Below, one piece after another: positions 8,824 through 64,000 of a stretch of 64,000 nt of DNA. Every line of letters begins with the position of its first letter. Position 1 is the stretch's first letter. The notes below the pieces were generated by a model, which did not search any database, was not told the origin of the DNA, and was given only the letters and a program-made list of their open reading frames with translations. Source of the DNA: Antedon mediterranea (lineage: Eukaryota; Animalia; Echinodermata); contig NC_092671.1 in the NCBI RefSeq assembly GCF_964355755.1, positions 11,408,001 to 11,472,000 on the forward strand, written 5' to 3'. The position numbers were made by a program, and so were the translations under genes.

Positions 8824-8825
8824 AA

Positions 8826-11339: not shown

Positions 11340-11344
11340 GATGT

Positions 11345-13525: not shown

Positions 13526-13781
13526 GTTGAGCGATTGTATGTAGAGTGATGAACAGAGAGAGTGAAACGAATGATGGTTGATAGTTCTGAATGATTTCGT
13601 TTGCATCAGGTCCGATATATATACAGTTGAGTACGGAAGTACCTTTTTAAAAGTAATTAGCCTAAAGCGTTGTTAATAGTTTTTCCTATCAATTGTCTCC
13701 CTACAACGCATGCGGATTAAAGCATTGTTAATTGTTTGTTTTCCGGTCAATCGTTTTTCCGTGGCACGTGCGAAACACGTT

Positions 13782-14333: not shown

Positions 14334-14493
14334 AGCGAAATACTGTAACTCTACGATAAAATAGACGAAACAACTGGAAAGGTCACAAAAAGCAGTCCCT
14401 CTTCTTACAATGTCTAAAAAGAAACGGCTCTAAAATATAAAAAACAAAACTATTGTACCAAACAAAAAGAACAATGAACAAAAGAAATTAGGA

Positions 14494-24642: not shown

Positions 24643-24797
<155 letters not shown>

Positions 24798-25204
24798 ACA
24801 AGAGGCAAAGAACATTAATTCTAAACCCCCATTTTATAAATGCAACCTTTAGTTATCGACACAGTGACATAGCATAGTCATCGCCTCCACAATTATATTA
24901 TTTTGTTTGCCAAGTATATTACTTGCTTTGGGTGTTTGTACGTCCACAATTTATTTTCAAGTTATCATCCTGAATTTATTTTCAACAGCCAATGAAAATC
25001 GATATATTGGTGACGTAATAAACCTTATTCATATTGAAATATCGAGTTATCTTTATAAAAAAAGCTTTTTTAAACTAAATACAGTATTGCCCCACGTTGT
25101 TCAATGAAAGTGTCTTATTAATAAGGGTTTTCCTTTAAATAGGGGTGTCCTGTTTACGTTCTTTCAATGTAAGTAGTTTATCATTATATATATATAGTAT
25201 ACAT

Positions 25205-26953: not shown

Positions 26954-27165
26954 GTACTTGGTATATATAGTACAGTATATACTATATACAGGCTGAATGC
27001 CTGAAAAACGATGTTTTCTTACCGTCAATTGCCTAATTTCTTAATAAATTTGTTTAATATACATCTTTTATTCACCCTCAGCAACATCGTGTTCTACATT
27101 CTTCATAGAATACCTCTAGTAATAAGTTTAACTTTTAAATATTGTACTATTTTTTTTGAAAACCA

Positions 27166-27499
27166 ATGCTCCTGCGAGTCTCATGGACTCAACACCGCAC
27201 AAATGATAGCATAAGAGAGGAGCTTAGTGTATCAAATGCTTGGTTAAAAAGCAGAAATTGTGCTATTTTGGGCACATTAAGCGGCAAGATGGAATGGAGA
27301 ATACAGTGTTAGAGGCTTATATTACAGGGAAGAGAAGAAGAGGAAGACCAAGATGCAAATGGAAAAAGACTATAACAGATGTGTTTGACTCTATGGAGCA
27401 AGCAAGTAGGATGGCAGAAGACATGAGATGGTTTCAGAATAGTGTTGTTAGAGAAGCCACGCGCTGATCAGAGTTTGCTTTACCGACGACGACGACGAC
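27166..27499 (+). mobile_element. 3' end of an RTE-clade LINE with (GAC)n tail
   Basis: KLCYFGHIKR...GKRRRGRPR; ends ccgacgacgacgacgac. Confidence 0.75.
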
Positions 27500-27811
27500 T
27501 ATTATTTAATTAAATTGTATTATATAATAAAGCTTACAAATTGTGTTTTTGTCTTTTATTCACCCTCAACAACATCATGTTTCTACATTCTTCATAGAGT
27601 ACTTCTTTTTAATGTAACTTTTAAATGCTTATAATTCAATTGTATTACTTAATCTATATTCCATTTTGTGTTTTTGTCTTATCTAATTTTGTTTACATGC
27701 CGTTAGTGTCTGGCCAGGAACCATGCACGACACCTTGGATTTTCTTTTGAACGTTGCCTCGTTGAAATAGACAAGTACCACAGTTCAAAGCTACATAATC
27801 AAATTATTTTT

Positions 27812-33184: not shown

Positions 33185-35020
33185 CGTGAAGATTGAAAAG
33201 ATGAGTAATTAATACAATAAAAAAAGAGTTAAAACAAGAGCATATTTAGTTTCTGGTAATATGTAGTTTCTCAGAGAATCAGAGTCACGCTTAGGCCCTG
33301 TCTCTGCAGAATTTTACATTTATATAAAAGCATACGCACATAAATTATTATTATTGACTGAATAACTGTTTTTCCGTACCATCAATCGTAATAAGAATTA
33401 ATAGTATGCCAATATAATATAATAGAAGGTATGAAGTATACCGTACGTGTATTTATTTGGATAACAGTGTACTGCTTTAGAGTGACATTTTTAGTTATAG
33501 ATGTATACGAGTGGAAAATGCATTAGTAACTGTCCTCACTCGCAGCTCATGACATAAAAATATAGGTAAATAAAAATGAAATAATAAATGAACGAGTTAA
33601 ACATTTCTATAATATATAAGTAGATAGAAAAGTAGATAGAAAAAAAAAATCTTTTCGAAACCTTGATTTTTTTTAATGGTATCAATTTGATTAATATAAC
33701 CAGTTTCAATAACGCTTAATAGGAGTAATAAAATGTTGCAAACGTACATTGAGAGCAGGAAATCTGGCAAGTTAATCGTTTTTGTTCAGCGACTAAATAT
33801 TATTATGAAGGTCATATAAATTTTAACTTGAAAGAAAGGTTATGGTTTTACTTGTAGTGCTTTTGCTATCATGAGAAAACGTTTTACGACGCACGCACTT
33901 TTAAAATCTTGGCCAGTGTTGTTGAGTCTACAAGATTTTGAAATGGAACGCGTCTGTAGCAATAATATTTTTTTAAATATTATTATTTAGAAAATAAATA
34001 GTGTACGCAGCCAATAAAAAATATTAAAATCAATGACATTGGGACTTCCCTCCATTGTGACTTCGTCGTGATGATTTTTCGAATTTCGTTTTGGCATTGA
34101 ATTTGTCTATGATTCGACAATGAGCCTGGGGATATAATAACCACATAACGACCTTCCTTTTGACGCACAGGGGTACGTTTAAGCACCCATATTATGGAAT
34201 AAAGTTATTTCCTGACCAGCTTCTGCTAAGCTGTCAGAATTAATTTCTTTCAGTCTTTATACACATTAAGCAGAATCTCCAAACGCATTTGTAATCATAC
34301 AATTCAATATAGCGCGTTATCGTGTCAATCGTCGCTTATGATTGGCAGGTACCTGGAAAAATTGCTGATAACACATTTAACAGCCAATCAGAATCATTAT
34401 GTCACACTGACTTTTATAACAATAATTTCAATTGTTACTGCATCGTAGACTTCATAGCTACTCTGGACATTCTTTAAGGTAGGCCTACGTATTTTTGCAT
34501 TTATTTATTTATTTTTTTATTCATGAACTTGTCAACTATAATAATATGTCTGTATAGACAGAACAGTTAAAAAATGTAAAACATATTTCTTTAAACATTT
34601 TATATGTCGCCATGAACTTATCAACTATAATATAGAAAGAATAGCTAAAAAATGTAAAACATATTTCTTTAACATTGTATATTTTGTCATCAACATTAAT
34701 ACACCAACGTAGGCCCTACTGTTGCTAGGTCTTGTAATTTGACTTTGTTTGTAAATTGATATAGGCCTACTAAATCCCACTTTGAGAATCGTGTTCTCCG
34801 TTTTTATTTTAATGATTAAAGTTTAATTCAATTGTAACAGTAGAACACCTCCTTTCGGAACACCACTATTATGGGGACAATTTCGGGTTAAGATGAACGA
34901 ACGAGAGATAACTTCAGGCAACACCTACTATTATAATCCTCTTAAAAGTCTCTACCGCATGTGAAATACCACTGTTCTTCTATTTTTTGTTCTCTAAACA
35001 GCTGTAAGCCAATATCATTT

Positions 35021-42625: not shown

Positions 42626-45600
42626 GTACTTTCGTGATGAGCCAAAATCCTACCACAATGCTACCATTGACTTCAATTCAAAGTAGGCCTTTAATCTTTT
42701 TTTTGGGGGGGTGAGTGGGGGGGGGGGGTGTCTGGATTTTTATCCACCCATACCCCCCTCCCCCCCCCCCAAAAAAAACCAAAATTATTACTCTTGTTTA
42801 TCACTGTTTATGTGGAAATTAAGGAGATAGGATTATACTTTAGATTGCATTAATTTATTTACCAAATTCTTGTGTCTAACATTAACCTAAAATTGTATAG
42901 GCCTACAGTATAATAGTGGGTGGGATTATACTTGAAACATATAGAGTAATTACTTTGATTTGTATTTTTCATTGTGTATTGTTACAATTCTTTGCTTTCT
43001 TATTGTTAACAGTGACAACCGATACAACTACAAGGTATAGACCGATCACACCACCTCCTCCACCGCCACCACCACCAGCACCACCGTCCTCTCTGTTTCC
43101 ACCAGTAAACAGTACAACGATGGCACCACCTACCAGTATGACACCAGTAAACCCAACCAACAGTGTTCCAACGATTACAATCACTAGTAATCCAAGCACT
43201 AGTGTTCATTCAAGGACTACAGGTAACGTTGAAATACCAACAAATTGTAAAAGATGTATTACGGTCCCCCAATAACATGAAAATTGAAGATTAATAAAAT
43301 CAGATTTTAAATTGGCCATTTTGCAGTTTTAATGAAATAATTATTTCACTTATAAAAAGACAAGAAAAAACGGTTAATTTTAACCAAAAACCATTGTCTG
43401 ACAGATAGTGTATTTGCTTTAAATTAAATTTTTTCAGGTAAATAATTTTTTTTATCCAGTTTTTAGTCAAAATGAATAACTATTATGTGACATTAAAATG
43501 GCATATTCCAAAAAAAAAATCTGAACAAAATAATTTTTTTTAGGAGGACAATAATATATTCTCTTGTATTGTATTTTTTTTAAATTTGGATCCGCCTATG
43601 CAGAGCAGTTAATGGTTCAAATGGATATTTTTGTATTTTCACAGTAATGACAAGCAGAATGGTTCCAAAAACTCCAAGTGTCATGCCAAGTATTACTCCA
43701 ACTTCTATGACTACTCCAGGTTTGCATAAAACATTTAATTTATTATTATTTATTAAAATATCAGTCAATCAATGTTAGTATAAAATGGGCAGACAATCTG
43801 TGTAAGGGTCTGTCTACACTGTCCAACTTGATGTGACAAAAACATGTGGACATGATGATGTCATATCACTACCATATTTGGGCATATCACACTTTTTTTG
43901 TCAAACTAGTTTGATAGTGTAGACAGAGCTTAAGGGTCATACGTAGGATTGAGTGTGAACCCTCAACCCCCTGGCTACTGGCTTGATAAGCATGTACTGT
44001 AATAATAAACTTATTATTTTTGTTTTCAGTTACTGATTATTGCAAGGAAGAGAACAACTGTGAACATATTTGTGTTAATATTAAAGATGGTTTCAGATGT
44101 GAATGTAACGCTGGTTATATGCTGCAGAAGGACCAAGCTAAATGTAAAGGTATGGACAACCTTAAATCAGAAATACTTTTTGTCAATCATTAACATGTTG
44201 GCTTAATAATAGAGTCATCCAACAGCAAGTAACTAATAGTGATAATTTCTGAATTAATCCTGAATGTGATAAACAGTAGTCATGCCAATAAATTCATATT
44301 TGGAGACTAATGACTGGTTCACTAATTCACTTGGATGCAACGACATAGGGGCAACAAATGTGAGTTGATCAATCACATGAAACAGTTCCGATGGCCCTTC
44401 GTGATTGGTCAAGTTACCTGCAGTACAGTACGTCCTTGTGTTCTGTCAAAGAGTCGTTGGCACTACAGTAAGTCACGATTGAAGAATGAACCACAAAATA
44501 TTACTAAAGATCTAAATCTGTATAATTAGCATTGATTCCAAACAATTCAAAAACATCTTTAGTAATATTAAAATCAATCATTTTTAACCCCCTCCCCCTC
44601 TTTTTTTTTTATAGATATAAATGAGTGCAATTCAATTTATAATGATTGCCCATCAAACTCAATGTGCGTCAACTCTAAAGGAAACTATACATGTATATGC
44701 ATTGAAGGTTTTGAGGAAAATGACAAAGGGCAATGTGATGGTATGTATGTAATACTTTAAAAATGTTTTTACAGAAAAGTAAAGTTTGAGAAACAGGTTA
44801 TAATGCTTCAACCGTCGTGTGGGGTATTACACCAGAAGACAGTTGTCACATAACAACTTAAACGTTCAGAAATGCTAATCTTTATCTTGTTTCCTCTTTA
44901 GAATCAGATGGTGTACCGCAAACCTTACTTTATATTAATGAATGTGTTTTTAAAATTTGTTTGCATCTCTCTTTTTCTAAAGATGTTGATGAGTGTTCTG
45001 CGATTCGCAATCCATGTCCAAGCAACTCTGCGTGTGAAAATACTGAAGGCTCTTACATTTGCAATTGTAATGAGGGCTATTTTGAAGAAGATGACAGCTG
45101 CACAAGTATGCTTTGTCTTGTATTTTAGGCCTACAGTAGTTGATAATGATACTATGTTAATAGTGGTTACCTAACCACCAATCCCAGGTGGGAGCCAACT
45201 TGGTTTATAACTTGGCACTGGCAGAATACAAAAGATAGACCATTGGGTTAAGTCATGACTTCATTTTTAGGCCATATTCACCTATCAAACTTAAGTAAAA
45301 TATTTTCCTTAAATATTAAGTATTTCCCTTATATTGTATTCACTTGGATAGGAGATTTCTTTGTGTTTCCATTAAATGGCATGTTGAATATGGCCACTGG
45401 GTCCTAAACATATCTACAGTATTTTATTTTAAAATCCTATAAAATCCTATATACAGTAATATATCTGAATTAATTGAATTTCTTTTTGAAGACATTGACT
45501 ACTGTGAGATGGGTAATGACTGTGAGCATATATGTGTAGATAGAATATCCACTTACTCCTGTAGCTGTTATCCAGGATATTCACTCAACTCTGATGCCAA

Positions 45601-48600
45601 GACTTGCACAGGTTTGTATAAATAGTAGTAGAAAAGCTTTGGGACACAACAAAGTTTACCCTTGGGGTGTTTCAACCTCAATAGGGGTTAATGGCTGTAC
45701 TGTCTAAGTATATTGTTCCGTGTTTGTTTTACAGGGAAAATGCCCCTTTTATGGGTGTCCCTTGAAAAGGACCGGTGTTTCCTGAATAGGGTTGTCTCCT
45801 GAATAGGGTTGTCTCCTGAATAGGAGTGTCTCCTGAATTAGAGTGTCTTCTAAACAGCAGTGTCCCAAAAGAGGGGTTCTATAGTATTCAATTTGTCTTT
45901 ATTTCAATGTTTATTCTCATCTTCAGAGGATGGAGTTGAATGCTCATTAACCTGCGTCAATGGTTTTTGTGTGACTGGATTTTTTGGTGACAGGTGCGAG
46001 TGCTCACCTGGATATGTAAATGAAAATGACACTTGTGTGGGTGAGTAAAGCAGGCTGTAACCATGTAATGTGCATTAAAAGGCAGACTACACCAAAATGT
46101 AGATGATATAAAGGGGTGCATATATAGAAACAAAATTCACAAAAACACTGTTGATTACACTTAATTGGTTACCCTTACATTTACAGTAATTCAGTAGCCT
46201 GAAAATTCTTTTACAATGATGTAAAATGACCTAGACTTTAAATTTAAATAAAATTATACACACTTAACTGGAAACAGGAAATTTGGATTAGGCTATCTAC
46301 AGAGCCACAAGAGCCAGAAGTACAACGCCTACACTGATCAGCACACCGGGAGACCTCCTACTTTTTTTTCATGAGCAATAATATTATGTTCACAGGACCA
46401 TCATCCCATCCAAAGGACAACGCAATGAAAGTAAAGCATCGTTTTTACCTCAACCAAGGAAATTAGCCTAAATCACACACAGCATTAAGACACACACAAA
46501 TATATATATATATTTCCCCGGAGAAATCTTATGTAGGAGAACTTTACAGTAGGCACTCTCGGAGTGGCTTCCTAGTATAAGGATATAATCAATATGGCAC
46601 ATACAAGCTTGAATTCATAATATTCATATGCTTGTCCAATTTTATGCTATGTCACTCTTGAGTTCTCTGAATTTTCCTTCTCTATGTCAATACAATAAAG
46701 GCAACATTTTGTGTAAAAATAATATTTTTTTCTTCTGCAGACATTAATGAATGCAAAATTCCTACCTCAATTCCTGACTTAATTCTTCGAAAATGTGATG
46801 GTCTCTGCACAAATTTTGACGGTACTTATGAGTGTAGATGCTTGAATGGACAGATACAAGCGCCTGATGGACGAACATGCATCGGTAATATTTGATTTAC
46901 AATGTGAAACCTACTGTACAATACATGTTTTAGTGATTAATCCAATTTTGTCATACCGTATGTTTTATATGTGTTATATAGACAAATGCGTGTTGTGGAA
47001 TTCCTAAACGTGTTCAGAGATAGGCTGTTTTCTAAACAATGCCGTTTTGAATCATTTGTAGATCGCACCTAATATAGAAATTAAAGGATTTACTTGCTTA
47101 TTATATTCAATGTTGTTTTTTCAGATATTGATGAATGTGCTCATGATACATTGAACGATTGCGCACCACCATCAGAGGGCGGCAATTGTACCGATTTAAT
47201 AGCCCCACTAAGGTACAAATGCTCTTGTTTATCTGGATACCAAGGAAACGGCAGATCATGTGAAGGTAAGTGGAGTGGAGCTGTAGCTTGGTGGTTGACG
47301 CGCTTGCCTTCCAACCCTAAGGTCCACAGTTCAATCCTGACCTAGTGCCAGACGTGCCACTCCCTAAACTTCAAATGAGACTTAAGCTCTGTCTACACTA
47401 TCAAACTTTATGTGACAACAAAATGTGAAATGCTCATATACGGACATGATGTCATATCACCACCATATTTGGGATTATCATTACCATATTTGAGCACATC
47501 ACACTTGTAAAACTAGTGTAGACAGACAGAGCTTGTTGATAAGCAAGATAAATTATAAAATAGTCCATATATCCATCCTGTAATTGGTGAGTTACTTTAG
47601 TAAAAATATTTTTTTTATTTTTTATATTGGAGACTCCAATTAGGTTTATTTATTACTTTACAGGTTACTTTTTAAAATGTTAGTTTATAAGTCTTCTGTT
47701 CAGCTGTATACCATTTATGCATGTTCCTTTAAATTATTTGAATTTATACCACTCAAAACTAACCATATCACAAAATAGTAATGGATACTTGTTCAGTTGA
47801 ACCGTGTGAGGGTGAAAATATGATTTGTGAGAATTATCCTGGAAGTCGAAGATGTTATTGTGAACCAGGTTACTATAAAACTGAAAGAGGAGATTGTCAA
47901 AGAGGTAGGAATGGGTCAAGCATCTTGAGAAGGGAAATTATCTATATGAGGGTATTAGGAAAGCTCCATTGCACATATGCATCATCAAATATTTTCCTTT
48001 AATACAAGCTCATACTCTTCCCCTACCCCCCAATCCATCATTTTGGAAAAACCACCAAATCAATTTAATGTTTATACTGTGAAATATGTTACCATTACAA
48101 TTTGGTTTATGCTTAATGCAAACCTTACACAATACAGTGGAACCCTCTATTAATGGGAAATCTTTAGGACCATCAAAGTATCCCCTTTTAGAAGTGCCTT
48201 GATCGTAGTTTTTAAAAGGGATTTTTCCCTTTATTTGTTTCACAAGAGAGATTCTTCAATTGAGGTGTCCCAAATGAAGTATTCTACTACTAATAATCAT
48301 TGAAGTAACATATTGTTATTTATTTTGAATTTAATTTTTCTTTTGTAGTTGAGCAGACCTATTCTACATTTGTAACTTTGGATGGCCCACAGGACGTGTT
48401 TACAGATGAGTTAAAAGATAAAACTAGTGATGCTTACATACAGATGGCCACAGATATTGAATTGAGTGTATGTGACATTTATTCGGCCCTGATAAACAGG
48501 ACTTCTCCCTCTGCTCGTTAAAATGCATTATGTGAATTTCTCATTTAATAAGAATTTAAATATATATAATGTATTGTTCCCTCTATGCCATTTTAATGTC

Positions 48601-51600
48601 GCGTAATAGTTGGGGTTTTGGATAGTAGGGAAAATTATAACCCAGGATGGTCTTGTCGAAGATGTTATGGATTTTTTAAATCAACACCAAATTGTTTTAT
48701 TTTATAGCTGGAAGCTGAGTTTCAAGAGAAGTATGGAGATGCATTCTTAATGTGCACAGTTGAGTCTTTTGCGTAAGTTACATTTTTTATTCTTGATAAT
48801 ATTGGAATATTGAATCATAACACCCATAGAGTTTTCATCAATCAATACTTTTGATTTTTAGTTTTCTATGATAATGTGTATGATTTTTGGTTAAAATTAT
48901 GATTTTTTTCTAACAGGTCTGGGAGCATTGTAGCGAATGTTGCAACATTTTTTAATGCAGAATACAAAGGAGACTTAGCTGAAATAAACACGTTTATTAA
49001 AGATGACGCTATTTATTGTGACAAGGGCATCTGTAATATTGGAGATATCACTAACGTTAATTCCGCAAAAACAGGCATTGAAGGTATTTTGTAAAATCAG
49101 TTTTGTATTGTTTCATTGCTAATGAAGATGAGGGAACACTAATTATCATCATCAAATAAAAAGACTAAAAAAAAACCTACTCATTCATGTTTAGCCAACA
49201 CATTCTGTTATGTGTATACATGGACCATTCAAGTAAATCAGACAGACATAAATCTCTATCCTTATCAAACTATATAACTTAGTTCCAAAGATGCTCATTA
49301 TACTTTTTTACATTGTTGCTTTTCATTGTTAAGTTCCATGTTGAATGTCTGTTGAATTTTAAATGGTTTTAATAATGTTTTTTGTATAGTTCTGCTATTA
49401 AGATAAGATAACTTTATTTCTTCCACAAAGTGGAAATAATGGTCCTAAAGTTATCAATATCAAGTCATAAAGTCAAATCATCTACAAAATTTAAGTATCT
49501 ACCTATTGCAGTTGTACTGGATGATATTAGGGGGAACAAAGGAGATAGATTGCGAATCTATTTGAGTCTCATCCTACCGCTTGGATTGGATGAAGAGGGT
49601 GGGAGACATCCATAACAATGATGTGACTATGATTTTTCTTAAGTTGCTCGATGTAAATGAAGCAATATCAAATGTGAATATTGTTTTCCACACTAGATTT
49701 AGATGAGTGTGCAATTAGCAAAGCCTCAGATATTGAACTGTGTTTGCCACACTCTATGTGTATCAATGAAGTCGGTTCATACACATGTGCCTGTATGGAA
49801 GGATTTCAATCTGTACTCAAGTCAAACAAACAAGTATTTTGTGAAGGTTAGTAACATGAATGGACGAAAATGGGAAATATTAGGCCTATGGTAATGTCTA
49901 AGAGACAAAATGTGTCTTTTTAAAAGTAACCATAACTATTTGTTGATAATACATTAAAGAAAAACAAGAAATATGAAGATCACGAAAAACATGAAAAATG
50001 AAGATTAATTTTAAAAACTACTTCTACTTCTGTAGAAAAAACAATAAAAAAATAATGTTTTGACTTATAAAAAGTCAAATTCCACCAAAACCCATTGACT
50101 TCCAGTCAATGTGACTATTTTTTGCTTTAAATTACAGTTTGTTTAGGTAAATATTTTTTTTAGGTAAATTTGTTTTATTTTCAATCCACTGAATTTTTAG
50201 TGAATAACTATTATTTGACCTTAAAATGGCATATATAAAACAAATTTTAAAAATTATTTTTTCAGGGGGACAATACTTAAAGACTTTAAGAAATAAAATG
50301 GTTATCAACTATTTTACATTAAGGTTTTTTATTATTTGTATAGATTTAAATGAATGTGAACAGAATTCAGGCATATGCTCATCAAAGATCAACAGCTACT
50401 GTGTGAACACATACGGAGGTTATGAATGCCAGTGTGAACCAGCTTTTAAGGACATTCATGGTGTATGTGCTTGTAAGTATATTCATAAAATATTGGTGCT
50501 TTGGTTAATAGATTAAATAATGCCCCGCTTTGAATAAACACCCCCCCCCCCCCCTATAGAACATCATTTTGAATAAAGTACGCTCCCCTCAAATAAACAC
50601 CCCCCCCCCCTATAGAACATCATTTTGAATAAAGTACGCTCCCCTCAAATAAACACCCCCCCCCCCTATAGAACATCATTTTGAATAAACGCTCCCCTCA
50701 AATAAACACCCCCCTCCCTATAGAACATCATTTTGAATAAACGCTCCCCTCAAATAAACACCCCCCCCCCCCCTATAGAACATCATTTTGAATAAACGCT
50801 CCCCTCAAATAAACACCCCCCCTCCCCTATAGAACATCATTTTGAATAAACGCTCCCCTCAAATAAACACCTCCCCCCTCCCCCCTATAGAACATCATTT
50901 TGAATAAACGCTCCCCTCAAATAAACACCCCACCCTCCCCTATAGAACATCATTTTGAATAAACGCTCCCCTCAAATAAACACCCCCCCCCCTATAGAAC
51001 ATCATTTTGAATAAACGCTCCCCTCAAATAAACACCCCCCCCCCCCTATAGAACATCATTTTGAATAAACGCTCCCCTCAAATAAACACCCCCCCCCTAT
51101 AGAACATCATTTTGAATAAACGCTCCCCTCAAATAAACACCCCCACCCCCCCCCCCCCCTATAGAACATAATTTTGAATAAACGCTCCCTTCAAATAAAC
51201 ACCCCCCCCCTATAGAACATCATTTTGAATAAACGCTCCCCTCAAATAACACCCCCCCCCCCTATAGAACATCATTTTGAATAAACGCTCCCCTCAAATA
51301 AACACACCCCCCCTCCCCCTATAGAACATCATTTTGAATAAACGCTCCCCTCAAATAAACATCCCCCCCCCTCCCCTATAGAACATCATTTTGAATAAAC
51401 GCTCCCCTCAAATAAACACCCCCCCCCCCCCCCCCTATAGAACATCATTTTGAATAAAGTACGCTCCCCTCAACCAAATAAACACCCCGGGTCTTTATTT
51501 ATTTGAATAAATTGGTACATAATAAATAGTACATTGATAGATTGAACATCAACCCTCTTTCTGTTACAGCTGTTTGTGATATTATGGAGTGTGAAAATGA

Positions 51601-52833
51601 AGCAACTTGTGTTATCACAGGTGAAGGCAAAGAACCAGAAGCAGTATGCATGTGAGTAGGTGCTCACCTCAATTCCTATATGAAGTATTAATTTGCTTCA
51701 GTGACCTGGGCTGCTGGTTGAATGCCCTTCGCCTCCCCTGCTTCAGTCCAGGGCTGTTGATTTATTGCCCTCTCTCAAGCTTGCATCCATTAAAAATGTG
51801 CACAAAAGTTAATGTTAAGGAGAACTTTATTGAACCTATATGTCTCTGACCCTACCATAAATAATACTATAAAAATATACTATCAATAAAACTGGAATCA
51901 TCAAAAAATTAACATTAATAGGGTTAATACAGTACATTAAACTTTCATTCATATTTAACTAATTTACATACAGGTGCCGATCTGGTTATCAAGGAGAACG
52001 TTGTGAGGAAAAATCAGGTGAATATTTTATTTGTGTGTATTATTACTGTACCATACACCCTTACACAAATTTTGTAAAATACAAGATAAATTGTTACTTA
52101 TTCTTTCATTATTCAATATTTATGATGGAGACTACAATAATAACATTTGTTATCCTTTTGTTTAGATTTATATAAAACAGCAGTAGGTGTCGGTGTCTCC
52201 TTTGTTTTGCTCAGTTTCCTGCTGTTATTAGTCATCATTGTTATGGCATGTAAAAAGCAATCGGGGTAAGTCCCATAATCAGCAGTAATCTAAGTCACTT
52301 CTATTTTATAAACCAAAAACTGTAGAAATAAAATATACACATTCATTCATAATTCAATTTTAACTATTAAAATTGATGTAATTAGTTTTTCTTAAATAAC
52401 AATATTCAAATTGATAGTTTGGTCATTGAATTATACCAAGGCAATCTAACAACAGGACACTGACTTTGCCGTGCCCGAATGCCACAAATACCAACAGTAC
52501 TGTACTATGTACATATTCTCTACGGTCACCAGTGTCTGTTTAAGGGGCATGTAACTGATCGTGTCGCTGCCACAGATAAACCTTTCGATCTCCAAAGCTC
52601 AGCATCCTGTTGTTAAATTGCCTTAGAAATAATTTTAAAAATGAAGTAGTATTGAAAGATGGTGTATATCTAATACATATATTTTTTATCATTTTAGTAA
52701 AACATACCCTGATGAGGACCAGTATATAGATGAAGGATGGGATGAGGGCAAAGGTCATGAAGAAAAACAAAAGGCAAATGGAGGTCACACAAATGTGGTC
52801 ATGATTGCAGGAGATGTGGACAATGAACCAAGG
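42626..52833 (+). CDS. Type I membrane protein: Pro/Thr-rich mucin-like region, 8 EGF/cbEGF, SEA domain, 3 EGF, TM, cytoplasmic tail (5' and 3' ends unresolved)
   Basis: PT-rich exons 42626-42682, 43013-43222 and about 43645-43719. EGF exons near 44030, 44615, 44983, 45492, 45928, 46741, 47125, 47779, 49697, 50344 and 51570+51974. SEA exons 48349-49083 carry the F.SGSIVA cleavage motif. TM exon 52166-52265; tail exon 52698-52833 ends at a splice donor. Confidence 0.88.
50530..51472. repeat. ~55-bp intronic minisatellite, about 17 copies, with variable poly-C
   Basis: Unit aaataaaca(c)9-20tatagaacatcattttgaataaacgctcccctc. Confidence 0.97.
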
Positions 52834-53335
52834 GTGAGAAATTACATTTCATTAGTCCTTTTGTTACACTTTTTCAGCACTGATTGGTCACAGCATTGGA
52901 ATTTACTAATTTGTAGTGGAACTGTTGGTGTTAATGTGCTTCATGCCTTCCAGTTCCAATGGCCAGTGTTCAATCCTGACCTAGTGTTCGGTGTTAACTC
53001 ACAACTGCTTACTCCATTCTCTAAGCCTCAAATGAGCTACACTATCAAACTAGTGATGTACCCAGATATGGTAGTGATATGACATCACCATGTCCATTAT
53101 AATGGGCACATCACATGTAACATAATGTTTGATAGTGTAAACGGAGCTTAAGTTCAACTAATGAATAAGCACGATAATCAGTTTATCCATCCTTGGCGAG
53201 TGTTTTGCTGTATAGTGTTGGATGTGTATAATTTGTTTTTATGTCAACTACCTAACTACATGTGCCTATCTTGTTTGCATTATATTATACAAAATGCTAA
53301 ATTTCAGATAATAACATAAACGAGGGTTTCTTTTC

Positions 53336-53804
53336 TGCGAGTTGCGAGTTGCGAGTTGGAAAATGCGAGTTGCGGGTCGGAAAATGCGAGTTGCGAGTCG
53401 GAAAATGCGAGTTGCGGGTCGGAAAATGCGAGTTGCGGGTCGGAAAACGCGAGTTGCGGGTCGGAAAATGCGAGTTGCGGGTCGGAAAACGCGAGTTGCG
53501 GGTCGGAAAATGCGAGTTGCGGGTCGGAAAACGCGAGTTGCGGGTCGGAAAATGCGAGTTGCGGGTCGGAAAATGCGAGTTGCGGGTCGGAAAATGCGAG
53601 TTGCGGGTCGGAAAATGCGAGTTGCGGGTCGGAAAATGCGAGTTGCGGGTCGGAAAATGCGAGTTGCGAGTCGGAAAATGCGAGTTGCGGGTCGGAAAAT
53701 GCGAGTTGCGGGTCGGAAAATGCGAGTTGCGGGTCGGAAAATGCGAGTTGCGGGTCGGAAAATGCGAGTTGCGGGTCGGAAAATGCGAGTTGCGAGTCGG
53801 AAAT
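53336..53804. repeat. 7-bp (tgcgagt)x3 followed by a 21-bp tandem array, about 21 copies
   Basis: Unit aatgcgagttgcgggtcggaa. Confidence 0.97.
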
Positions 53805-55987
53805 TGTAAAAATAATAATTTTTCAAGGAGGTCGTACCATCCAAAAAAATAAATACATGAACCAAACAATCAGTAAATAAATTACAATTTAAATTTTGTT
53901 TAGTTTTTTTCATATTATGACCTGCTTAACAATTATAGACTAGTGATTCCTTTTTTAACATGGATGTTTAAAAATGGTTGAAATGAACTTATTTTGTATT
54001 TCAACACAAAACAATTATGTTATTGATACTTTATATTTTGAAATAATATAATTGTAAATATAGTAGATTAAAGTTATTATTTAATTTGTTTGCAATTACT
54101 GATGATGATACAATTACTAATAATGATACAATAAATTATGTACATGTATTTTTGCCTTGTTAAATGAGAAAATAATAATAAATTGGTAAGAAAAACTCAC
54201 ATTAAAAAGTACAGTTAGTATTGTTATTATTAGTATTGCAGGGAGGTGTTTACAGTATTTAGGTAAGCTGATTAATTATGATGGTTGGAGTCATTAGTAC
54301 TACCTTGTGTACAGCAGATACCATAAATAGGGCAAGGAAACACATACCATACCTACAGATAATGGTCAAATTTTCAAAGCTATATTATTTTCTTAGAAAT
54401 CATAGTCAATTCTTTATGTTTATAATATTTTTTTGTTAAACATTTTCAGACAAACTGTCCATAGATACATATAAATACATATGAATACAAAAAAAAGAGA
54501 AGAAATACACAGTTTATTATGTGTAACACCCATCAGCAAATCATGGAGAAGACCAATTAATGTATCTATTGAAATATAGTGCATCTCTCCAATTAAAATA
54601 CATTCTGGAATCTAACCATATATTCATAATCTAACATTTTTTTTGCTTTTCATAATTTTGGAAAGAAGACTGTAAATTGTCAACCTAAAAAATTCATAAG
54701 AAGATGGAATATTGTTTTCTACAAATAATTTTCTCTGACTTAGAATAGATATCGGAGTTGACAACAACAACATGCGGAATAAACACAAATTCATGCTTTA
54801 GTATGTACACGTACAGTACAGTAGGCATCTGTCAAATGTACTATGTGTATTTAAAGTAACTTTAGCAGGGTACAGATGTAAATACTGAAATCACTGGTTT
54901 GTTTTTAGAGAAAATATAACTTATAACTAAGATAATTCAAATTTACTTGAATTGAATTGTTGAATTTAGGTGACAATAATCATTGATCTGCGCCCACAAT
55001 TACATAGGAGAAGGAATTATTATTACTTATATACAGTATTGTTTGATGAAATGTGTGATACAGTAGGTGAAATGAAGTTGTATTTTAGTTGTTGTTCAAC
55101 GCGATGATCAAATATACAACACACTAAGAATGTAAAATTAAACTGTACATTTTGTATTGCAAGTGAAAAGATGCAGTAGAGTCGATCGCATATAAAAAAA
55201 CACTTGATCCTCAAATAAATGAATACACAGAATACATTAGAAAGTACTGGAATCAACACAGTGTTGCTTGCTTATGAATTGGTTAAACTGACTGATTAAA
55301 TGAGGAGATTGCACCCTTATTTATATCTTATTGATATATGGGGGTGCCAATTATGACTTCATCGCATAACTTAGAGATGAGAATAGTTAGTTTTTAGATG
55401 AAACTTAAATGACATCATCATCTTTAAGAAGAAATTATAGATGACATCATACCAACTTTAAGTCACAATCCCTTTTGGTATAGTACACAACAAGTGTCCA
55501 TGACAGGTAAATTTATGGGCCCTTTGGGAGTACCTAGTACAAAAGTCTGCATAGTGTAGTGCTGACTTATACAAGTAATAATATGTTAACAATTATATGA
55601 AAATGATTGTGTAAATAATAAAGTTAAAAGTAAATGCATTAAAAATCATGTGGTGGGCTAAACTGTCAGGCTTCTTATATTTATTAGTAGGTAGCAGACA
55701 CAAATCTACAATGTGGACCTTTATCAAAGCAGTCATTAATTGTTTTAGTAAAAGATACCTGCCCCAGGGTGGGAGTTAATTGCTTCATGGAGACCATGAT
55801 GGAGAATTCATTATCTTTTAAACCTACCACCAACCCCACCTCAGCTCCTCCTCCCAACCAAGATCCACATGCCATACATCCCTGAGATGGTTCAAATGTA
55901 GTAAATTTTAAATCAGATTATTTGATACAACATTACCTCTAAATGCCAGTATTTCCTTATACATGAACATTCAAACAAACAAAAATA

Positions 55988-56307
55988 AGCGAGTTAAAAA
56001 AAAATCTGCGAGTTAAAAAAAAATCTGCGAGTTAAAAAAAAATCTGCGAGTTAAAAAAAAATCTGCGAGTTAAAAAAAAATCTGCGAGTTAAAAAAAAAT
56101 CTGCGAGTTAAAAAAAAATCTGCGAGTTAAAAAAAATCTGCGAGTTAAAAAAAAATCTGCGAGTTAAAAAAAAATATGCGAGTTAAAAAAAAATATGCGA
56201 GTTAAAAAAAAATCTGCGAGTTAAAAAAAAATGTGCGAGTTAAAAAAAATGTGCGAGTTAAAAAAAAATCTGCGAGTTAAAAAAAAATCTGCGAGTTAAA
56301 AAAAAAT
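55988..56307. repeat. 19-bp tandem array, about 17 copies
   Basis: Unit tctgcgagttaaaaaaaaa; shares the TGCGAGTT core with the 21-bp array. Confidence 0.97.
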
Positions 56308-57404
56308 GCTTGATTTAAAAACATAAATGTTATATATTTATCAGTTATAATTGGATAACCCTTCTCTTTTAACATTTTAGTGAGCCACTTGAGTGTTCAT
56401 TTCGATTTTAATCTTTTGGATTTTGAACTCTTTACTTTGTTTTGTTTTTGTCTGATGAAATAAATGAAAAAATATACATATTTGAAAATTCTCACTCTGT
56501 TTATATATATGTGTATGTGTGTGTGTGTGGGGGGGGGGGTATTAAGGTGGCACATAAGGAGATACTGGCATGTTTGCATTAGTAGTTATTATTTGTTTTT
56601 TGTACTAAAAACAAGTTAAATTAAATCAATGGCAATCACATAGATAAAAGAAGATAAAAGTTACAACGCAATCAAGTTTAAACTATGTTATGTCCGACAG
56701 CTTCAGGCCCGTAGCCAGGGTGGATTTTTTATGGTTCGGGTGAAAGTATTTATTCTCTCGTTACTATCATCATTATATCATTACCATTAAAATTATAATT
56801 TTACATTGTTTCATTATCCACATAAGTGTACATTGATTCATTGTATTGATTGAAAACATATTTTCACAAATCATATTAAAGAAGAAACTTGATGTAAAAA
56901 AATATTGAGTAATACAGTAGCCTGGATTTATTTATATATGTTGTGAAGCTTTTAACGCTGTGTAGGCTACCCATCCTAGTAAAAAGTAAAAAAAAATCAC
57001 TTGTGCCGCTTCCTTTATATAGTAAGGGCAACAAGGGCCTTGTATATAATTACTAGCCCAGATACTAGCCAGGGCGGGAGTACGTTGTTGCATTGATGAA
57101 AGTTTAGAGAATTGACTGTCAATAGAAATAATGATATATATTTCAATCTTTTGTGGTGGTTTCCCATCTATTTTTATAAAATGTAAATATTAATCAATGC
57201 AGAAAGAAGTAAAAATAGAATGTAACATTCTCGGCTGTATATTAAATAATACAGATGTTTATAACATCTGTATTAACTGTGTAATGTGTCATATTGGATA
57301 CGGTAATGATTGAAATTGTTTGGCTCGCCTTCATAGGGTCAACTATATTGTGTTTTGAGAATATACCCTTCCCAGCATGTCAAGCGAGCTGCCTAAATCT
57401 TCTT

Positions 57405-57650
57405 TAGGTTTCTATTTTCGTATATTTGAGTCTCCCTTTTCCTATATTTTCCTACTTTTTGTATATTTGGGTCTCCCTTTTCGTATATTTAGGTCTCCCT
57501 TTTCGTATATTTGGGGTCTCCCTTTTCGTATATTTGGGGTCTCCCTTTTCGTATAGTGGGGTCTCCCTTTTCGTATAGCGGGGTCTCCCTTTTCGTATTG
57601 GGTCTCGGGTCTCGGGTCTCTGGTCTCGGGTCTCTAGTTTCGAAACACCC
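57405..57650. repeat. 22-23-bp tandem array plus 7-bp (gggtctc)n, ending tttcgaaacaccc; transposon-terminus-like
   Basis: Unit ggggtctcccttttcgtatatt, decaying leftwards. Confidence 0.85.
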
Positions 57651-57994
57651 GTCAAAACCTACCGTATTTAAAAAATACCTGGCCAACCTAAAATCAAAAG
57701 TGTATGGTTTTTGTTCATTAATGAAAACTAATTGATCACAGAAGCTTGTACTAGTAGGCCTACTAATAACATGGGTGGCATAGCTTATCAGAATAGTGTC
57801 TACATATCGTCTATTGCCTTATCTAATCATTAAAACCTCAGACTCAACCATAAATTAAATCTGATCCATCCTCATTGTCTTTATTTTGTATTACTTTTAG
57901 AGCTAAATGATTGGACAATTAGTTCAATTTTGGGGGGTTAAGTAAAAAAGTTGACACAGAAAGTATTTAGTTCATGAGATGATCACAAGTCATA

Positions 57995-59019
57995 ATGGCT
58001 TTCAAAATTCCTACATTATCTGTATCTAAGAAGAAAGTGTATGATATTTCAGGGATTCAAAAATTTGATTGGAGCGAAATCTCATTTCCAAATGAGATTG
58101 GGCGCGGGGCATTTGGTATTGTACATCGAGCTACATACAAAAACAAACTAGTTGTGGTAAAAAAAATTATTACCGAGGATGAAGAATACAAAAAAATGAT
58201 GGCCAAGGAATGCAAACTAATGAGTGCTCTTCAACACAGGAACATAGCAGATTTTAAAGGAGTGTGTGAACAACCTTACTCTATTATGGTGGAGTACTTA
58301 TGCTTTAGCTTTAATCCATTTGGATTTGCAAAACAAGTTAATGATCTCTCTCAGTGGTTAACTGCTATTGACCAATTAGAGGATGCATCAGATATGAATG
58401 ATTTCTCGTCAATAATTGTTACGGACATTGCCAATGGACTAGACTATCTGCATCATCTTAACATTATACACAGAGATCTAAAACCACAAAATGTGCTAAT
58501 CTCCAACAGGCATTATTCTGAAATTAACTGTGAAACTTCAGAATTTTACAGGGAATTTCAAAAGTGTCCCATTCATTGTAAATTGACTGACTTTGGGGAA
58601 AGTAGATCTGACTTCGTTCAGACTAAATCACTTGTAAACAATGCAACAGAAAATGTCCATCGTGGATCTATGCCATATATGGCTCCTGAAATCCTAACAC
58701 ATGAATCACAGTTTAAAGCAAGTATAAATGATCTGAAGAAAATCGATATCTGGGCATTGGGAATGACGATTTATAATATCTGCAATCCTGGGGTAAAATA
58801 TCCATATGAGCTTGACACACAGGAAAAAAGTCAATTTCGGTTTCAGAAGTTTTTGATAAATCAATTAAAGAATGGCAAGCGCCCATCACATTCTACAAAA
58901 TACAGTGATGTTCAAAAAACAAAATGGAAGAAGATAATGAATATATATTTTCGGTGCACCATAGTAAATCCACTAGCCCGTCCAAAAGCTTCATGGATAG
59001 TCCGTGAATTAAAAAAATG
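57995..59019 (+). CDS. Protein kinase domain (exon 1 of the fusion gene)
   Basis: GRGAFG, VVVKK, HRDLKPQN, DFG, YMAPE and DIWALG are all intact; GTAAGT donor at 59020 overlaps the ORF stop. Confidence 0.92.
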
Positions 59020-59486
59020 GTAAGTACAGTTTATTTTGTGACTATAAAATCAATAATTCTTTGTAATTTAATATAGTGCATTTATTGTCTTTGTAATTTT
59101 ATATTATTAAAGCTCAGGCAGGCATGATTTTTATTTATTATTGTCGGAATACATGTACATAAAGAAAAAAATTATGGTCAAATAATTAAGAATTTGCCAG
59201 ACAAACTTTTTCAGTAGTTATGTAGGTATGCTTTAATCTGATTTACTCAACTCTAGAAAGTTATAAAAGTGCAAACAAATTATATATGAGGATATATAGT
59301 GGATAAGTTTTGATATAGCACAAATATAAAAATCTGAAGTTAAATATAAACACCAAAAATAACAAATTCAAGTTAATAGTCATCTGATACATTTTTTTAC
59401 CAAACCGCTTTGTAAGTTAAGAATAAAATGAAAAGTGAATTTTATGTTCAGTGTTGAAACCTATCTAAATTGTCATTCTATTACAG

Positions 59487-60996
59487 TGGTGGTGCTAGTA
59501 CTAGTAGTAACATTGATGACTGCATTGACATTTCTGAAGATGAAGCCAAGTCTAGTAAAAGTGTACCTCATGAAAACAAGAGTCTTAATGAACATGACAT
59601 TGACTGCAGGTAAGAACAGATAATTCTGGGTTATTACATCACAAATTGCGTAGTACAAGACCACAACAATTTATATTATAGAACGTTACAAGCTATAAAT
59701 TATCTGCTGCTAACTTTAAGATAAAACAATTGATATTACTCAATTTAAAGTAAACTTTGCCTAAAATTTTAAATCCATTCTTTATTTTATTAATTAGTGA
59801 CATTGATGACTGCATTGAAATTTCTGAGGCTGAAGCCAAGTCTAGTAAAAGTGTACCTCATAATGAACATGACATTGACTGCAGGTAAGAACACTAAACA
59901 AAAATTAATCCATTATAACATTAAACAGTAATTCTATTATAATGTATTCTCTATCCCTAGACAATTACCTAATTTACAATAACTGAGCCGAACAGAAAAT
60001 AACTGTTAATGATCTGTATAGAGAGCAATTTTTGTTTTTCATTTCATTGGTCGCTTGCATTATTCTATTCTTAATGATAATAATAATAATAAAGTTATCG
60101 GAAAACGGAAAACTTGATTACTTAACAAGTTCGTTTCAGTATACAAGACTATTTACAAAAAAAACAAACAATTAAAAAAAAGTAAAAGAAGTAAAAAGAA
60201 TGTGACTAAACCAATTCTTTATTTTATTAGTAACATTAATGACTGCATTGACATTTCTGAGGATGAAGCCAAGTCTAGTAAAAGTGTACCTCATGAAAAC
60301 AAGAGTCTTAATGAACATGACATTGACTGCAGGTAAGAACAGATAACTCTGTGTTATTACATCACAAGAACAAACCCTTAAAGACCACTTTATATTAAAT
60401 TGACTACATCATGATTTAGTAAAAAAAATTTCCAGTATATTATAGGGAACTTTAAGATTTCTCATATGTCTGTATTCAGTTTACATCTGCCTTATATTCC
60501 TACTTTTTTTCAATGCTAGTAAACTCTATATAGGATTAGTGTTATCTGAAAGATCTTTAATTTAACATGATGTATTGCAAATAGTAACAAAAGAGGTATG
60601 GCAAGGGAGAAGGTGAATGCTGCCATTAAGGATAAAACAATTGATATTCAATTAAAGGTATTTTTCGAAAACTTAGCCTTAAATGTTTATTCTGTTCTTT
60701 ATTTTATTAGTAACATTGATGACTGCATTGACATTTCTGAGGATGAAGCCAAGTCTAGTAAAAGTGTACCTCATGAAAACAAGAGTCTTAATGAACATGA
60801 CATTGACTGCAGGTAAGAACATTATTATGAAATATGATCTTTATTTGATGATTTCAATAAAATTCTTTGCTAATGTAACAATCTCTAAATAAATATGTTA
60901 AACTGACACCCAATTATATAATTTAATTTATTTTATTCTTTCAGTACTGCTCAACAGGCTTTTCAGTACAGAAGACCTACTAGTGAATTGACCATG
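59487..60996 (+). CDS. Four duplicated acidic exons plus a linker exon of the fusion gene
   Basis: 59487-59609, 59798-59884, 60231-60332 and 60711-60812 are all phase 2-2 with AG/GTAAG sites and encode (N/D)IDDCIDISEDEAKSSKSVPHENKSLNEHDIDC; linker exon 60945-60996. Confidence 0.8.
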
Positions 60997-61328
60997 GTAT
61001 GCTAATAATTTGTTTCTAGTTTTATACATACAGTAATTAACAAAATTTGTAAAGCTGTATTGTCCCCAGAAAACATGAAATATGAAGATAAAATAGACTT
61101 TGTAGTTTTAATTAATAAAGTTAATCACTTCCATAGGGAAAAAAAGCCAATCTGACCATTGTTTTGCCTTAAATAACAGTTGTTCAGATAAAAAATAATG
61201 TTTGGTCAAAGTGAATAACTATAACTATATTCAACAAAACAACTTAATTTAACGTTTTTTTGTAAACTTTGCCTGAAATGTTTATTCTGTTATTTATTTT
61301 ATTAGTTTCTAATTTTGTTATGATACAG

Positions 61329-61956
61329 AGAAATCAGGATTTTGTTATAATGGGAGATTTTCATCAGGCTTCCGAGGAACAATTCTTCCATGATGCTGCA
61401 GGTTCTCAGTGCTGCTCCATAAGTATAATGGCGATAGTATTCAGTAAAATGAAAGCATCAGTTAATTGGACTAAAGATATCATTCATGATATAATGATGC
61501 AAGGTGACGCTGTCCATGTGTCAGCTTTAAGAAGGTTGGGATGGCCAGATAAACGAAGAGAAAAAACACTTGATGTTGATGAGCTACCAGAAATTTGGAG
61601 CTATACAGTAGATGGAAAACATATGAAAGCCAGTGTTGGTACGCTTGAAGGTGGCAAGTTTGGCTATAGTTTACACAATTTGCTAACCGAGTCACTTGTC
61701 ATCAATTCATGCTCTTATCTGCTAAGAATTGCAGATAAATGCACTGCCATCATAAAAGATTCCAGTGAAGGATGGAGTCTATTTGACAGTCACGCCTGTA
61801 ACTACAAAGGGCAACGAGACCCTGATGGTGCAGCAAGTATGACAAGGTTTGGGACAGCAACAAGGTTAATTGAACATTTAGCAACATCATATCCTGATGA
61901 TGGACGACAAATTGATATTTTTCCAGTTTATGTGCAGATATTAGGTGAAGATGAAG
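61329..61956 (+). CDS. Herpesvirus large-tegument-type (peptidase C76) deubiquitinase-like domain exon
   Basis: GDFHQ...AGSQCC...WTKDIIHDIMMQGD...LFDSH: catalytic Cys and D-x-H. The exact acceptor is uncertain; donor at 61957. Confidence 0.78.
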
Positions 61957-62429
61957 GTAAGCAATCTGAGTTTCTAAAATCATTATATAGACTGAGTAAT
62001 AAAATTAAAATAATGATAGTAATTTATAATTATTAAAACGCTTAATTGCACACTGTTAAATTTGCAAGTTAAAAAGGAATTAAATCTTCCAACCCTCTAT
62101 TATTAGCATCTATTTTAAAACAATTTTATAATTTGGATTTAATTTAAGTTATTACATATTTTGAGGTGAAATTTCCATTTAAATAATAATCATGATAACA
62201 AACTTTCTTGTGTTAGTATCGCATTAGTTGCAAACATTTCAGTTTTGATGACATCATCAAGTCCAAACACGGATCACTTAACTATACACTATTATATAAC
62301 ACATAAATAAATTCATGTAAATTTACAGTATTGGACAATTGTGGGTCACATGATTTTAATAATTTCCATACAAAATAATGTACCATAATTGATTAATGTG
62401 ACATTAACAATCAATTTTATTTATTTTAG

Positions 62430-64000
62430 ATAATGAATCTGATTTGAACGATACAGATGACAGTTCTGACTTCTCGATGAGATATAAAAATAAGAAATAT
62501 GACAAAGAGCACTGGAAAGAATGTATGCCAAAACAAGTCAACACACTGCCCTTTGATATCAATGGCTTAGAAGTTTATCATCTTTCCTGCAGTAAACAAA
62601 GTGAAATGATGAAAGTTTCAAAGGACGGAAGGCCATGGAACCGTTACTGCAAGACTTCACGAAAACACTTTAAGGGGGTACGACGTATTGCACACTGTAA
62701 AGGATCGCCAATATGTAACAACCCGGAGTGCACATATCTGAAAATGTATGGGTGTCAAAACAGAAGCCAATTCGGTAAAGAGACGGGCATATTAGTGTGC
62801 TACACATGTGGGAAGGCAGCAGATCATGTAAAATGTTATGCCACGAAGGTATGGGAATACAGTAACGACATGGTGGTTGTTATGCATACTGGCTTCCACA
62901 CATGTGTAGCAAAAAAACCAAATGTTTCTGTGGCCGTCATTGAAAAGGATATAAAACAGCATCCTGGTCTCAAGCCAAGTGCCATCGTTTCGGCCAAAAT
63001 AAACGCAATCATGACCTCCAACAGCTTCAAGTGGAAAGATGTGGATGAGTTAGCTGAAAGATATAGTGAAATGAAAAGAGTCCACAATGCAAAGGAAAGG
63101 TTGAAGCAGGTGATGTTGCCACTTGGTGACAATTTTGAAGCTCTCGCGGATTTTAAACAGAAATGCGAGGAAAAGGATAAGTACCTAATATATCAGATAA
63201 ATAACAGGACCTTTAACAACAAACATAGTTATGTTTTCAAGTCCAGCAAACAAATGGCAGAACTGGCTCTATCAATGGACAGAGACCAAGATGGCATATT
63301 GTCAGGTGAATATGCCTATGTTGACGGCAAACATAACCACTGTAGAGGTTATGTTACGATCACATTATGGGTTTACCATCCAGTAATGAGACGAGTTGTT
63401 CGCCTTGCAGTGTGTGACACAGAGAAAGAGGACACCACTAACCTTGAAACATTTTGGAATGTTTTCAACGAGATGCTCTCTAACGCTGCTGGACGAACAG
63501 TAATTTTCAATCCCTGTGGTTTTGTTGCAGATGAAAATCATGCCAACTGGAAAAGTATCAAGAATGTGTTCGGCGATGATGGAGTTCGTAGAACTGTATC
63601 CTGCGAATTTCATTACAAGCAAAGTGTACAACGCCATTCAAAAAAAATTCCGCAAGATGATGCTGCACAATTCATTGAGATTGCAAATTCTATGCTCACT
63701 GCATATTCCCTTACTGAACTTAATGAAGCATGCAAAGAAATGACCAAGTTCACTGAGAAGCATCAAGTTCTTCAGAACTGGTATTCCTGGTGGTATGCTC
63801 GAAGAAGTCATATTTTTCGGGCTTACAAACCAAGTGATGCACCAGTTTCAAACTTGGCTGAGGTAGGGCATGCTAAAATGAGTGTGTCAAAGCAAAAAAT
63901 GTCCCTTTTAGAAGCAGCTAGGCAAGACGTAATCGATGCCATTAGACAACAAGCTGAGATTAACGGCTTCAAAGAAGGTCAACATAAGGGGGGCAGAGGA
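62430..64000 (+). CDS. MULE/Mutator-like DDE transposase with GCM-like Zn DNA-binding domain; open to the window end
   Basis: About 523 stop-free codons read by hand. DGRPW..CKGSPIC.NPEC..CYTC..C..HTGFHTC, then YVDGKH, FVADENHA, SCEFH (CxxH), WYSWW and SNLAE. Confidence 0.8.

Follow-up and report, generated by a model that had tools for sequence, protein, structure and literature searches.

Mutator-like elements (MULEs) that carry a protease include the Ulp1-carrying MULEs and Rehavkus, and the foldback-type MULEs are bounded by long terminal inverted repeats (TIRs) in which short units recur in tandem. In Aedes aegypti, Muta1 (PMC5225508) possesses, like the MULEs surveyed by Dupeyron 2019 (PMC6446971), a DDE triad, a CxxH motif, a conserved W and an N-terminal zinc DNA-binding domain. 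MULEs of Medicago have a cysteine protease of the ubiquitin-like-modifier family, OTU, fused to the transposase, and other MULE transposases adopt a WRKY-GCM1 fold that has the extra zinc-binding Cys of the GCM1 factors (Babu 2006, PMC1702500). The viral tegument-like deubiquitinases (VTDs) of Helitrons (DrT1-VTD2, 8ADD) and the herpesvirus tegument proteins have a common layout of Q-C and D-x-H; Helitron VTDs cleave K48 and K63 chains, some cleave NEDD8 too, and cnidarian VTDs are found fused to unnamed transposon-associated domains (Erven 2022, PMC9741609). The gene described here lies at 57995..64000 of a 64,000-nt stretch of Antedon mediterranea (Echinodermata; NC_092671.1, positions 11,408,001 to 11,472,000), the whole of which is called the window. 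With a probability of about 0.75, it belongs to a Mutator-like DNA transposon of the foldback type and would be spliced to encode one polyprotein in the order kinase, acidic spacer, VTD, GCM-fold domain and DDE transposase.

The DDE triad, CxxH motif, W and N-terminal zinc domain are those of Muta1 and the surveyed MULEs, and the foldback-type ends are seen on a relative, L001. The gene differs from Muta1 and the surveyed MULEs in forming a polyprotein of 1,200-1,650 aa with a kinase and a VTD, in its GCM-fold domain and in having no Pfam MULE hit. Unlike the protease-carrying MULEs, it has a VTD and not an OTU, Ulp1 or USP protease, the protease is N-terminal and a kinase is added; unlike the carriers of Helitron VTDs, the host element is a DDE transposon. 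The GCM1 family consists of low-copy animal regulators (PMC1702500), whereas here the GCM fold, at 12-13% identity and likewise with extra zinc-binding Cys, sits within a transposase. ISCth4 (IS256/Mutator family, PDB 6XG8/6XGX), which the catalytic part matches best in structure, is prokaryotic and without cargo, and is 9-12% identical.

The gene is divided into the following exons:

57995..59019, plus strand: exon 1, Ser/Thr-type protein kinase, aa 1-341 (Pfam Pkinase E 4.6e-35; 190 family representatives at E<=1e-30)
59487..59609, plus strand: exon 2, acidic Cys-containing repeat 1, phase 2-2, 123 nt
59798..59884, plus strand: exon 3, acidic repeat 2, 87 nt, with an in-frame 15-nt deletion
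60231..60332, plus strand: exon 4, acidic repeat 3, 102 nt
60711..60812, plus strand: exon 5, acidic repeat 4, 102 nt
60945..60996, plus strand: exon 6, 52-nt linker, phase 2-0
61329..61956, plus strand: exon 7, Helitron/herpes-type VTD (C76-like) cysteine protease, C525 and D650-x-H652
62430..64000, plus strand: exon 8, acidic linker and transposase, open at the window end

An earlier note on this DNA, made from the letters alone, had claimed eight GT-AG exons in one frame with at least 1230 codons and all catalytic motifs intact. This is borne out by the join, which is 3,690 nt or 1,230 codons long, stop-free and open at 64000, has a GT donor and an AG acceptor at all seven introns, retains the kinase, VTD and transposase motifs, and shows the intron phases that the note had given (2,2,2,2,2,0,1). 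Exons have a GC content of 0.35-0.42 versus 0.20-0.28 in introns. Strong donors of the form G|GTA[AT]G number nine between 59015 and 62429, where 1.1 are expected (1,000 shuffles, maximum 6); seven of the nine are donors of the eight-exon model, four of these seven being copies of one duplicated exon. Each of the acidic exons has a length of 3n, and the similarity among the four falls away beyond the exons and splice sites, with the exception of a short intron start common to two of them. The donor of exon 1 is a perfect G|GTAAGT at the end of the kinase domain. Reading through it yields a 342-residue kinase that stops just past the donor at a TAA spanning 59021-59023, which the note had given as 59023. 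Seven relatives that were checked extend 163-228 residues beyond the window end, and some 160-230 further transposase residues are expected there. We infer that the window copy is spliced across all eight exons in RNA.

The features of eukaryotic Ser/Thr kinases (Gly loop, VAIK Lys, alphaC Glu, HRD, DFG and APE) are all present in exon 1, as GRGAFG36, K56, E72, HRDLKPQN159, DFG199 and APE230, and HRD[LIV]K is kept in 134 of 148 kinase family hits. A close host orthologue of the kinase was not found, the family profile giving similar scores to ULK1, IRAK4 and RIPK1, and a PDB sequence search with the single window kinase produced no match at 1e-15. One family hit, P0181, ends in a CARD domain and is RIPK2-like; it may connect the cargo kinase with the immune kinases of hosts, or may simply be a host kinase. 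The names ULK1-like, CDK2 homolog and STY46 are attached by NCBI to P0060, P0061 and P0063, which are members of this transposon-linked kinase family.

Exon 7 is predicted to encode a Helitron-type VTD (C76-like) deubiquitinase, as the earlier note had called it. The Pfam Herpes_teg_N hit is weak and under the cut-off (E 0.0019). The best PDB match is 8ADD, the zebrafish Helitron VTD (E 0.004 with the single sequence, 7.5e-4 with a profile), with the catalytic residues aligned: Q524-C525 and D650-S-H652 line up with the Gln before the catalytic Cys and with the Asp-x-His of 8ADD. The middle domain of the relatives is of another kind. N-A-C is found in 47 and D-T-H in 52 of 57 middle-domain segments, and an AlphaFold2 model of this domain (pLDDT 85.9) has VTD structures as its first matches, with 8ADD again the best (Z 13.8, rmsd 3.4, 170 aligned), followed by M48 (Z 11.9) and 8ADB (Z 11.7). 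As modelled, the N-A-C/D-T-H domain thus has the VTD fold. There is no profile match between the window VTD and this usual VTD of the relatives (probability 3%), and no remnant of the latter type is found within 55000-64000.

Two domains are recognized in the transposase part of exon 8:

62516..62905, plus strand: GCM-fold zinc DNA-binding domain, aa ~736-865 (AlphaFold2 model, Foldseek and VIA)
63323..63862, plus strand: Mutator/IS256-type DDE core (Foldseek, VIA and conserved residues)

The AlphaFold2 model of this part, built with 63 sequences, has a pLDDT of 94.7. Its zinc domain matches 1ODH (Foldseek E 3.6e-4; VIA Z 7.7, rmsd 4.1, 128 aligned), with WRKY domains among the matches too, and its 7 Cys and 2 His are kept in 88-100% of the relatives spanning those positions. 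The best fold match of the catalytic part is ISCth4 (Foldseek E 7.5e-5; VIA Z 12.6, rmsd 5.0, 256 aligned), followed by Hermes, RAG and the P element. The core has the RNase H fold with a helical insertion that is typical of the IS256/Mutator type. The motifs are D1005, D1074, C1098xxH1101, W1161 (the conserved W of the insertion domain) and E1184. D1005, D1074 and E1184 are invariant in the aligned rows that have letters at these positions (63/63, 58/58 and 48/48), C1098 and H1101 are kept in 57 of 58 and W1161 in 49 of 50. The MULE transposase call of the earlier note is upheld by this fold match and by these residues. PF10551 reaches E<=0.1 in 9 of the 63 aligned relatives (best 2.6e-4), below the cut-off, and two Mytilus relatives bear the MULE name in UniRef. 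A PDB sequence search with the transposase profile returned one chance-level match only. Two other identities were considered. The element is not a Helitron or Helentron, there being no RepHel protein; the mobility enzyme is a DDE transposase, and only the VTD resembles Helitron cargo. Sola3, whose hallmarks are a TTAA duplication, GAG termini and Sola3 transposase motifs, was considered in view of the CxxH motif and of a TTAA that adjoins the end of one relative (L002), but the fold favours Mutator/IS256.

Evidence for one polyprotein comes from the relatives, in which the kinase-protease-transposase fusion proposed from the window is conserved in single proteins; the kinase-VTD-transposase fusion is a family trait. 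Of 15 relatives that measure 931-2655 aa, eight have the kinase ahead of the transposase in the same protein, and the N/S-x-C ... D-[TS]-H motifs of the middle domain are intact in five of these eight; P0003 and P0005 are without the protease, and P0006 is without its catalytic motif. Where the window gene has its acidic exons, P0005 likewise bears acidic tandem repeats. Among the 150 best kinase relatives, 94 end less than 100 residues past the kinase with nothing further detected, and 53 have a tail of at least 100 aa, which in 46 holds the N-A-C and D-T-H domain. Named hosts of parts of the family are Anneissia, Holothuria, Lineus, Mytilus, Actinostola, Paramuricea and Sanderia. In the nearest relative, Anneissia XP_033124349, a truncated model that begins within the VTD, the same VTD as in the window gene (61% identical to exon 7) is joined to the same transposase; the exon 7-8 join is colinear with it (61% identity over 271 columns, 5 gaps), which supports this join. 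The family was searched for in microbial sequence as well: 49 pattern stretches for the transposase in viral contigs and 18 in prokaryotic genomes yielded none that was confirmed, and the kinase-VTD alignment against viral contigs gave 79 loci with generic kinases only (22-30% identity), the VTD being covered in none.

The protease slot is exchangeable, being filled by OTU in distant relatives (OTU/C65 hits in three more distant long ones), by the N-A-C/D-T-H VTD in the majority of the kinase clade and by the Helitron-type VTD in the window sub-lineage. A quick transposase tree (68 candidate rows, of which the 55 with 300 or more aligned residues were used) places the window and Anneissia as a pair (100) inside a kinase-bearing clade (33 rows, 98); because of this nesting, the tree suggests that the protease was swapped in the window/Anneissia sub-lineage. 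The window copy is a mosaic, and P0113 is the reverse mix, showing that the cassette is shuffled within single ORFs (open reading frames). Kinase and VTD are also found on a second MULE-like transposase lineage in six long kinase relatives, one of them from the jellyfish Sanderia. This lineage has D, D, CxxH and E in its four complete members, weak MULE or SWIM hits in three, and a common C-terminal domain (probability 95%).

The proposed origin from a DNA transposon is supported by near-identical intact relatives (98-99%) on several separate contigs, with P0002/19/20 at 99% and two Sanderia gene models at 97.8%, and by the foldback ends of L001 and L002. A metagenome scan for relatives yielded nine loci, of which L001-L003 are one 11-kb element at three loci, with a kinase exon, a 1,863-nt phase-1 intron and a VTD and transposase, 1,393 aa in frame; its splice from kinase to VTD-transposase lies at a different intron from the window gene. 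The element is bordered by inverted tandem arrays whose 12-bp unit has the core CTGCGAGT, and the L001 contigs stop inside these arrays. The remaining six loci are short or broken and without such arrays, L006 having none in 4 kb downstream. Upstream of the kinase, the window contains two candidates for corresponding arrays:

53320..53810, plus strand: candidate left end, terminal TAAACGAG followed by a 21-bp tandem array (22 copies; Tandem Repeats Finder 53343-53803) rich in ATGCGAGT and TTGCGGGT
55977..56307, plus strand: second TGCGAGT array, 19-bp unit, 17.5 copies, an alternative left end or an inner subterminal array

These arrays account for 58 of the 62 plus-strand matches to TGCG[AG]GT in the window, and share core and orientation with the left foldback end of L001/L002. 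A shuffled unit gives the core of the 55977..56307 array with a chance of 7.5e-5, and there are 7 background hits in 63 kb. TAAACGAG starts both the outer array and the reverse complement of the L002 end, a likeness noticed post hoc. The octamers ATGCGAGT and TTGCGGGT, each present 18 times in the outer array, match the GCM binding site ATGCGGGT (PMC2172107) in 7 of 8 bases, so that the candidate end repeats of the window resemble the GCM octamer. We infer that the outer array belongs to the same element as the kinase-VTD-transposase gene, which would then start near 53320 or 55977 and measure ~13 kb or ~10 kb. The right end would be expected beyond 64000, as an inverted TGCGAGT array whose tip resembles CTCGTTTA and next to which 8-11 bp of the left flank are duplicated. 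Between the arrays and the kinase start lie a moderately repeated element (56667-57394) and a 22-bp tandem repeat element of very high depth (57400-57657; hairpin 57392-57408), both probably nested insertions. A host gene with calcium-binding EGF exons (44027-52900), spliced in sequencing run X1, ends just before the outer array. At the far end of the window, contigs of three runs break at 63919 with a rise in depth (63919-64000), hinting that the 3' part of the transposase is common to other copies or derivatives.

Mechanistically, all eight exons would be spliced to give one polyprotein, whose GCM-fold domain would most likely bind the TGCGAGT repeats at the element ends and whose DDE core would cut and paste as in Muta1; retention of intron 1 would give a kinase-only protein. 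The VTD would most likely strip K48/K63 ubiquitin, as Helitron VTDs do, sparing the transposase or its partners degradation, and the kinase probably targets either the transposase or a defence protein of the host. Kinase and deubiquitinase would in this way shield the transposase from ubiquitin-driven turnover or silencing by the host, a counter-defence purpose to which we give slightly less than an even chance. The pairing echoes viral counter-defence kits and points to protein-level host control of transposases, and the occupation of one slot by three protease types suggests that this activity was selected for more than once. Many database "kinases" of nemerteans, sea cucumbers and jellyfish are probably cargo of this transposon. 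Tentatively, the picture may be widened to a widespread, undescribed Mutator group of marine animals with a mobile counter-defence cassette of kinase and VTD shuffled between transposase lineages. GCM-like octamers in the foldback ends would be recognized by its GCM-fold domain, and the group would be a living model of what the GCM (glial cells missing) factors and their binding site descend from; with the GCM-fold domain and the GCM-like end repeats, the proposed transposon origin of these factors is open to a direct binding test.

Several observations weigh against the assignment to one transposon-encoded polyprotein. The exact order kinase, Helitron-type VTD and transposase is found in none of the relatives. 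Exon 8 has no Pfam hit, the window transposase no MULE (PF10551) hit, and an allele turns R1170, conserved in 31 of 50 relatives, into W. The window ends at 64000, so that the right end and the target-site duplication lie outside and are not visible in it; within 52000-64000 there is no TIR-like inverted repeat. In a quick tree, the window kinase clusters with kinases of unknown downstream context, outside those fused to its own transposase lineage. In DNA-like runs, the depth over the gene equals that of the control (X5: 39-49 versus 29-42), and no recent amplification is thus evident; contig depth is a hint of a single copy, but is not a copy number. Lastly, contigs of X1 cross donor 1 (58853-59141) and acceptor 6 (61273-61600) unspliced, and no intron joints over the gene are present among its seven listed pieces.

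None of the five sequencing runs that cover the stretch is recorded as RNA, but a spliced contig of host mRNA in a control region shows that X1 carries RNA. Its depth is 5-8 over the gene (the seven listed pieces) versus 2-3 for unspliced control pieces; 59512-60013 is without cover and uninformative. Since contigs drop rare forms, the unspliced contigs weaken splicing and do not refute it. Among the junctions that the earlier note had proposed to check in RNA, 59019/59487 and 60996/61329 are weakened by contigs unspliced at 59019 and 61329, and the exon 7-8 join is supported by the Anneissia model.

Of the alternatives, the one that survives best keeps the same element and gives its cargo another job: the VTD would cut the polyprotein, or remove NEDD8 or another ubiquitin-like modifier, and the kinase would regulate the transposase (for example, its cell-cycle timing) and not the host. 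Polyprotein processing has been proposed for the OTU-fused MULEs (Babu 2006, PMC1702500), NEDD8 is cleaved by some Helitron VTDs, and the protease is dispensable in places, as P0003, P0005 and P0006 indicate. The filling of one slot by three unrelated protease types (OTU and two VTD types), all from deubiquitinase families, nevertheless fits deubiquitination better than self-cleavage, and this alternative is unlikely, if not negligibly so.

Less probable still is that there are two products or two elements, with the kinase made mostly or only unspliced (342 residues, stop at TAA 59023) and the VTD-transposase either forming its own unit or arising from infrequent splicing in the germline, for which P-element-like splice control is a model. 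The in-frame stop inside the donor, present in the window and in L001, is consistent with this, as are the position of the window kinase in the tree and the X1 contig 58853-59141, which ends 30 nt past an ATTAAA at 59106, although contigs cannot show a transcript end and this is one study. X1 reads through introns 4-7 as well, however, so that its signal resembles unspliced RNA or DNA throughout, and an approximately unbiased test does not reject monophyly of the kinase with its own transposase lineage (p 0.1). The perfect donor at the kinase end, phases that are compatible through five small exons and the kinase-first fusion as the rule of the family also argue for a single product, and M506 is the only ATG ahead of the catalytic Cys region in exon 7.

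More doubtful again is a host-fixed gene that was domesticated from such a transposon and retained because its kinase, deubiquitinase or DNA-binding domain serves the host. The single-copy depth fits it, as do the seven introns, absent from many relatives, and the sparser listed variants in exons than in introns (11 in 3.69 kb versus 17 in 2.32 kb, p 0.015; 12 further variant rows stand outside this count). Yet nine of the 11 exon variants, R1170W among them, alter the protein, in line with the neutral expectation (synonymous share 0.196). All three DDE residues are in place, end-like arrays persist upstream and the model of the nearest relative, that of Anneissia, is truncated. Chance joining of unrelated ORFs is ruled out by the one-protein fusions of the relatives, the in-frame splice of L001 and the colinearity of exons 7-8 with Anneissia. 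The window copy is probably a lone, intact insertion of the polyprotein-encoding transposon.

The statement that no transposase with both a kinase and a C76 deubiquitinase had been described is consistent with the literature searched, which contains neither a kinase-VTD-MULE fusion nor a kinase-fused MULE; Repbase, subscription journals and the supplements of Dupeyron 2019 were outside this search and may hold such elements. The word "kinase" is absent from the main text of Dupeyron 2019 (PMC6446971) and from the parts consulted of Babu 2006 (PMC1702500) and Arkhipova 2019 (PMC6431247), and "kinase", "MULE" and "Mutator" are absent from the main text and three supplements of Erven 2022 (PMC9741609), which partly anticipated the protease part. 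The kinase-VTD-carrying MULEs are probably an undescribed group. New beyond the earlier note are the GCM-fold domain, the candidate left-end arrays, the exchangeable protease slot and the second transposase lineage with the same cassette.

Elsewhere in the window, a Polinton/Maverick-like element (834-14429) encodes PolB (Pfam E 5.5e-45), an adenain-type protease, an rve integrase with a chromodomain and a PC4-domain protein; further ORFs look like ATPase and capsid genes, the ATPase-like stretch being divided between two ORFs. Retroelement-like remnants lie near 15401 and 25977. Minus-strand exons of at least two SLC22/MFS-like transporter genes (weak Sugar_tr hit) lie at 23568-33208. Among the loci of relatives, an ORF beside a decayed transposase copy (L009:320-937) has helicase-like motifs, as in Academ-type elements.

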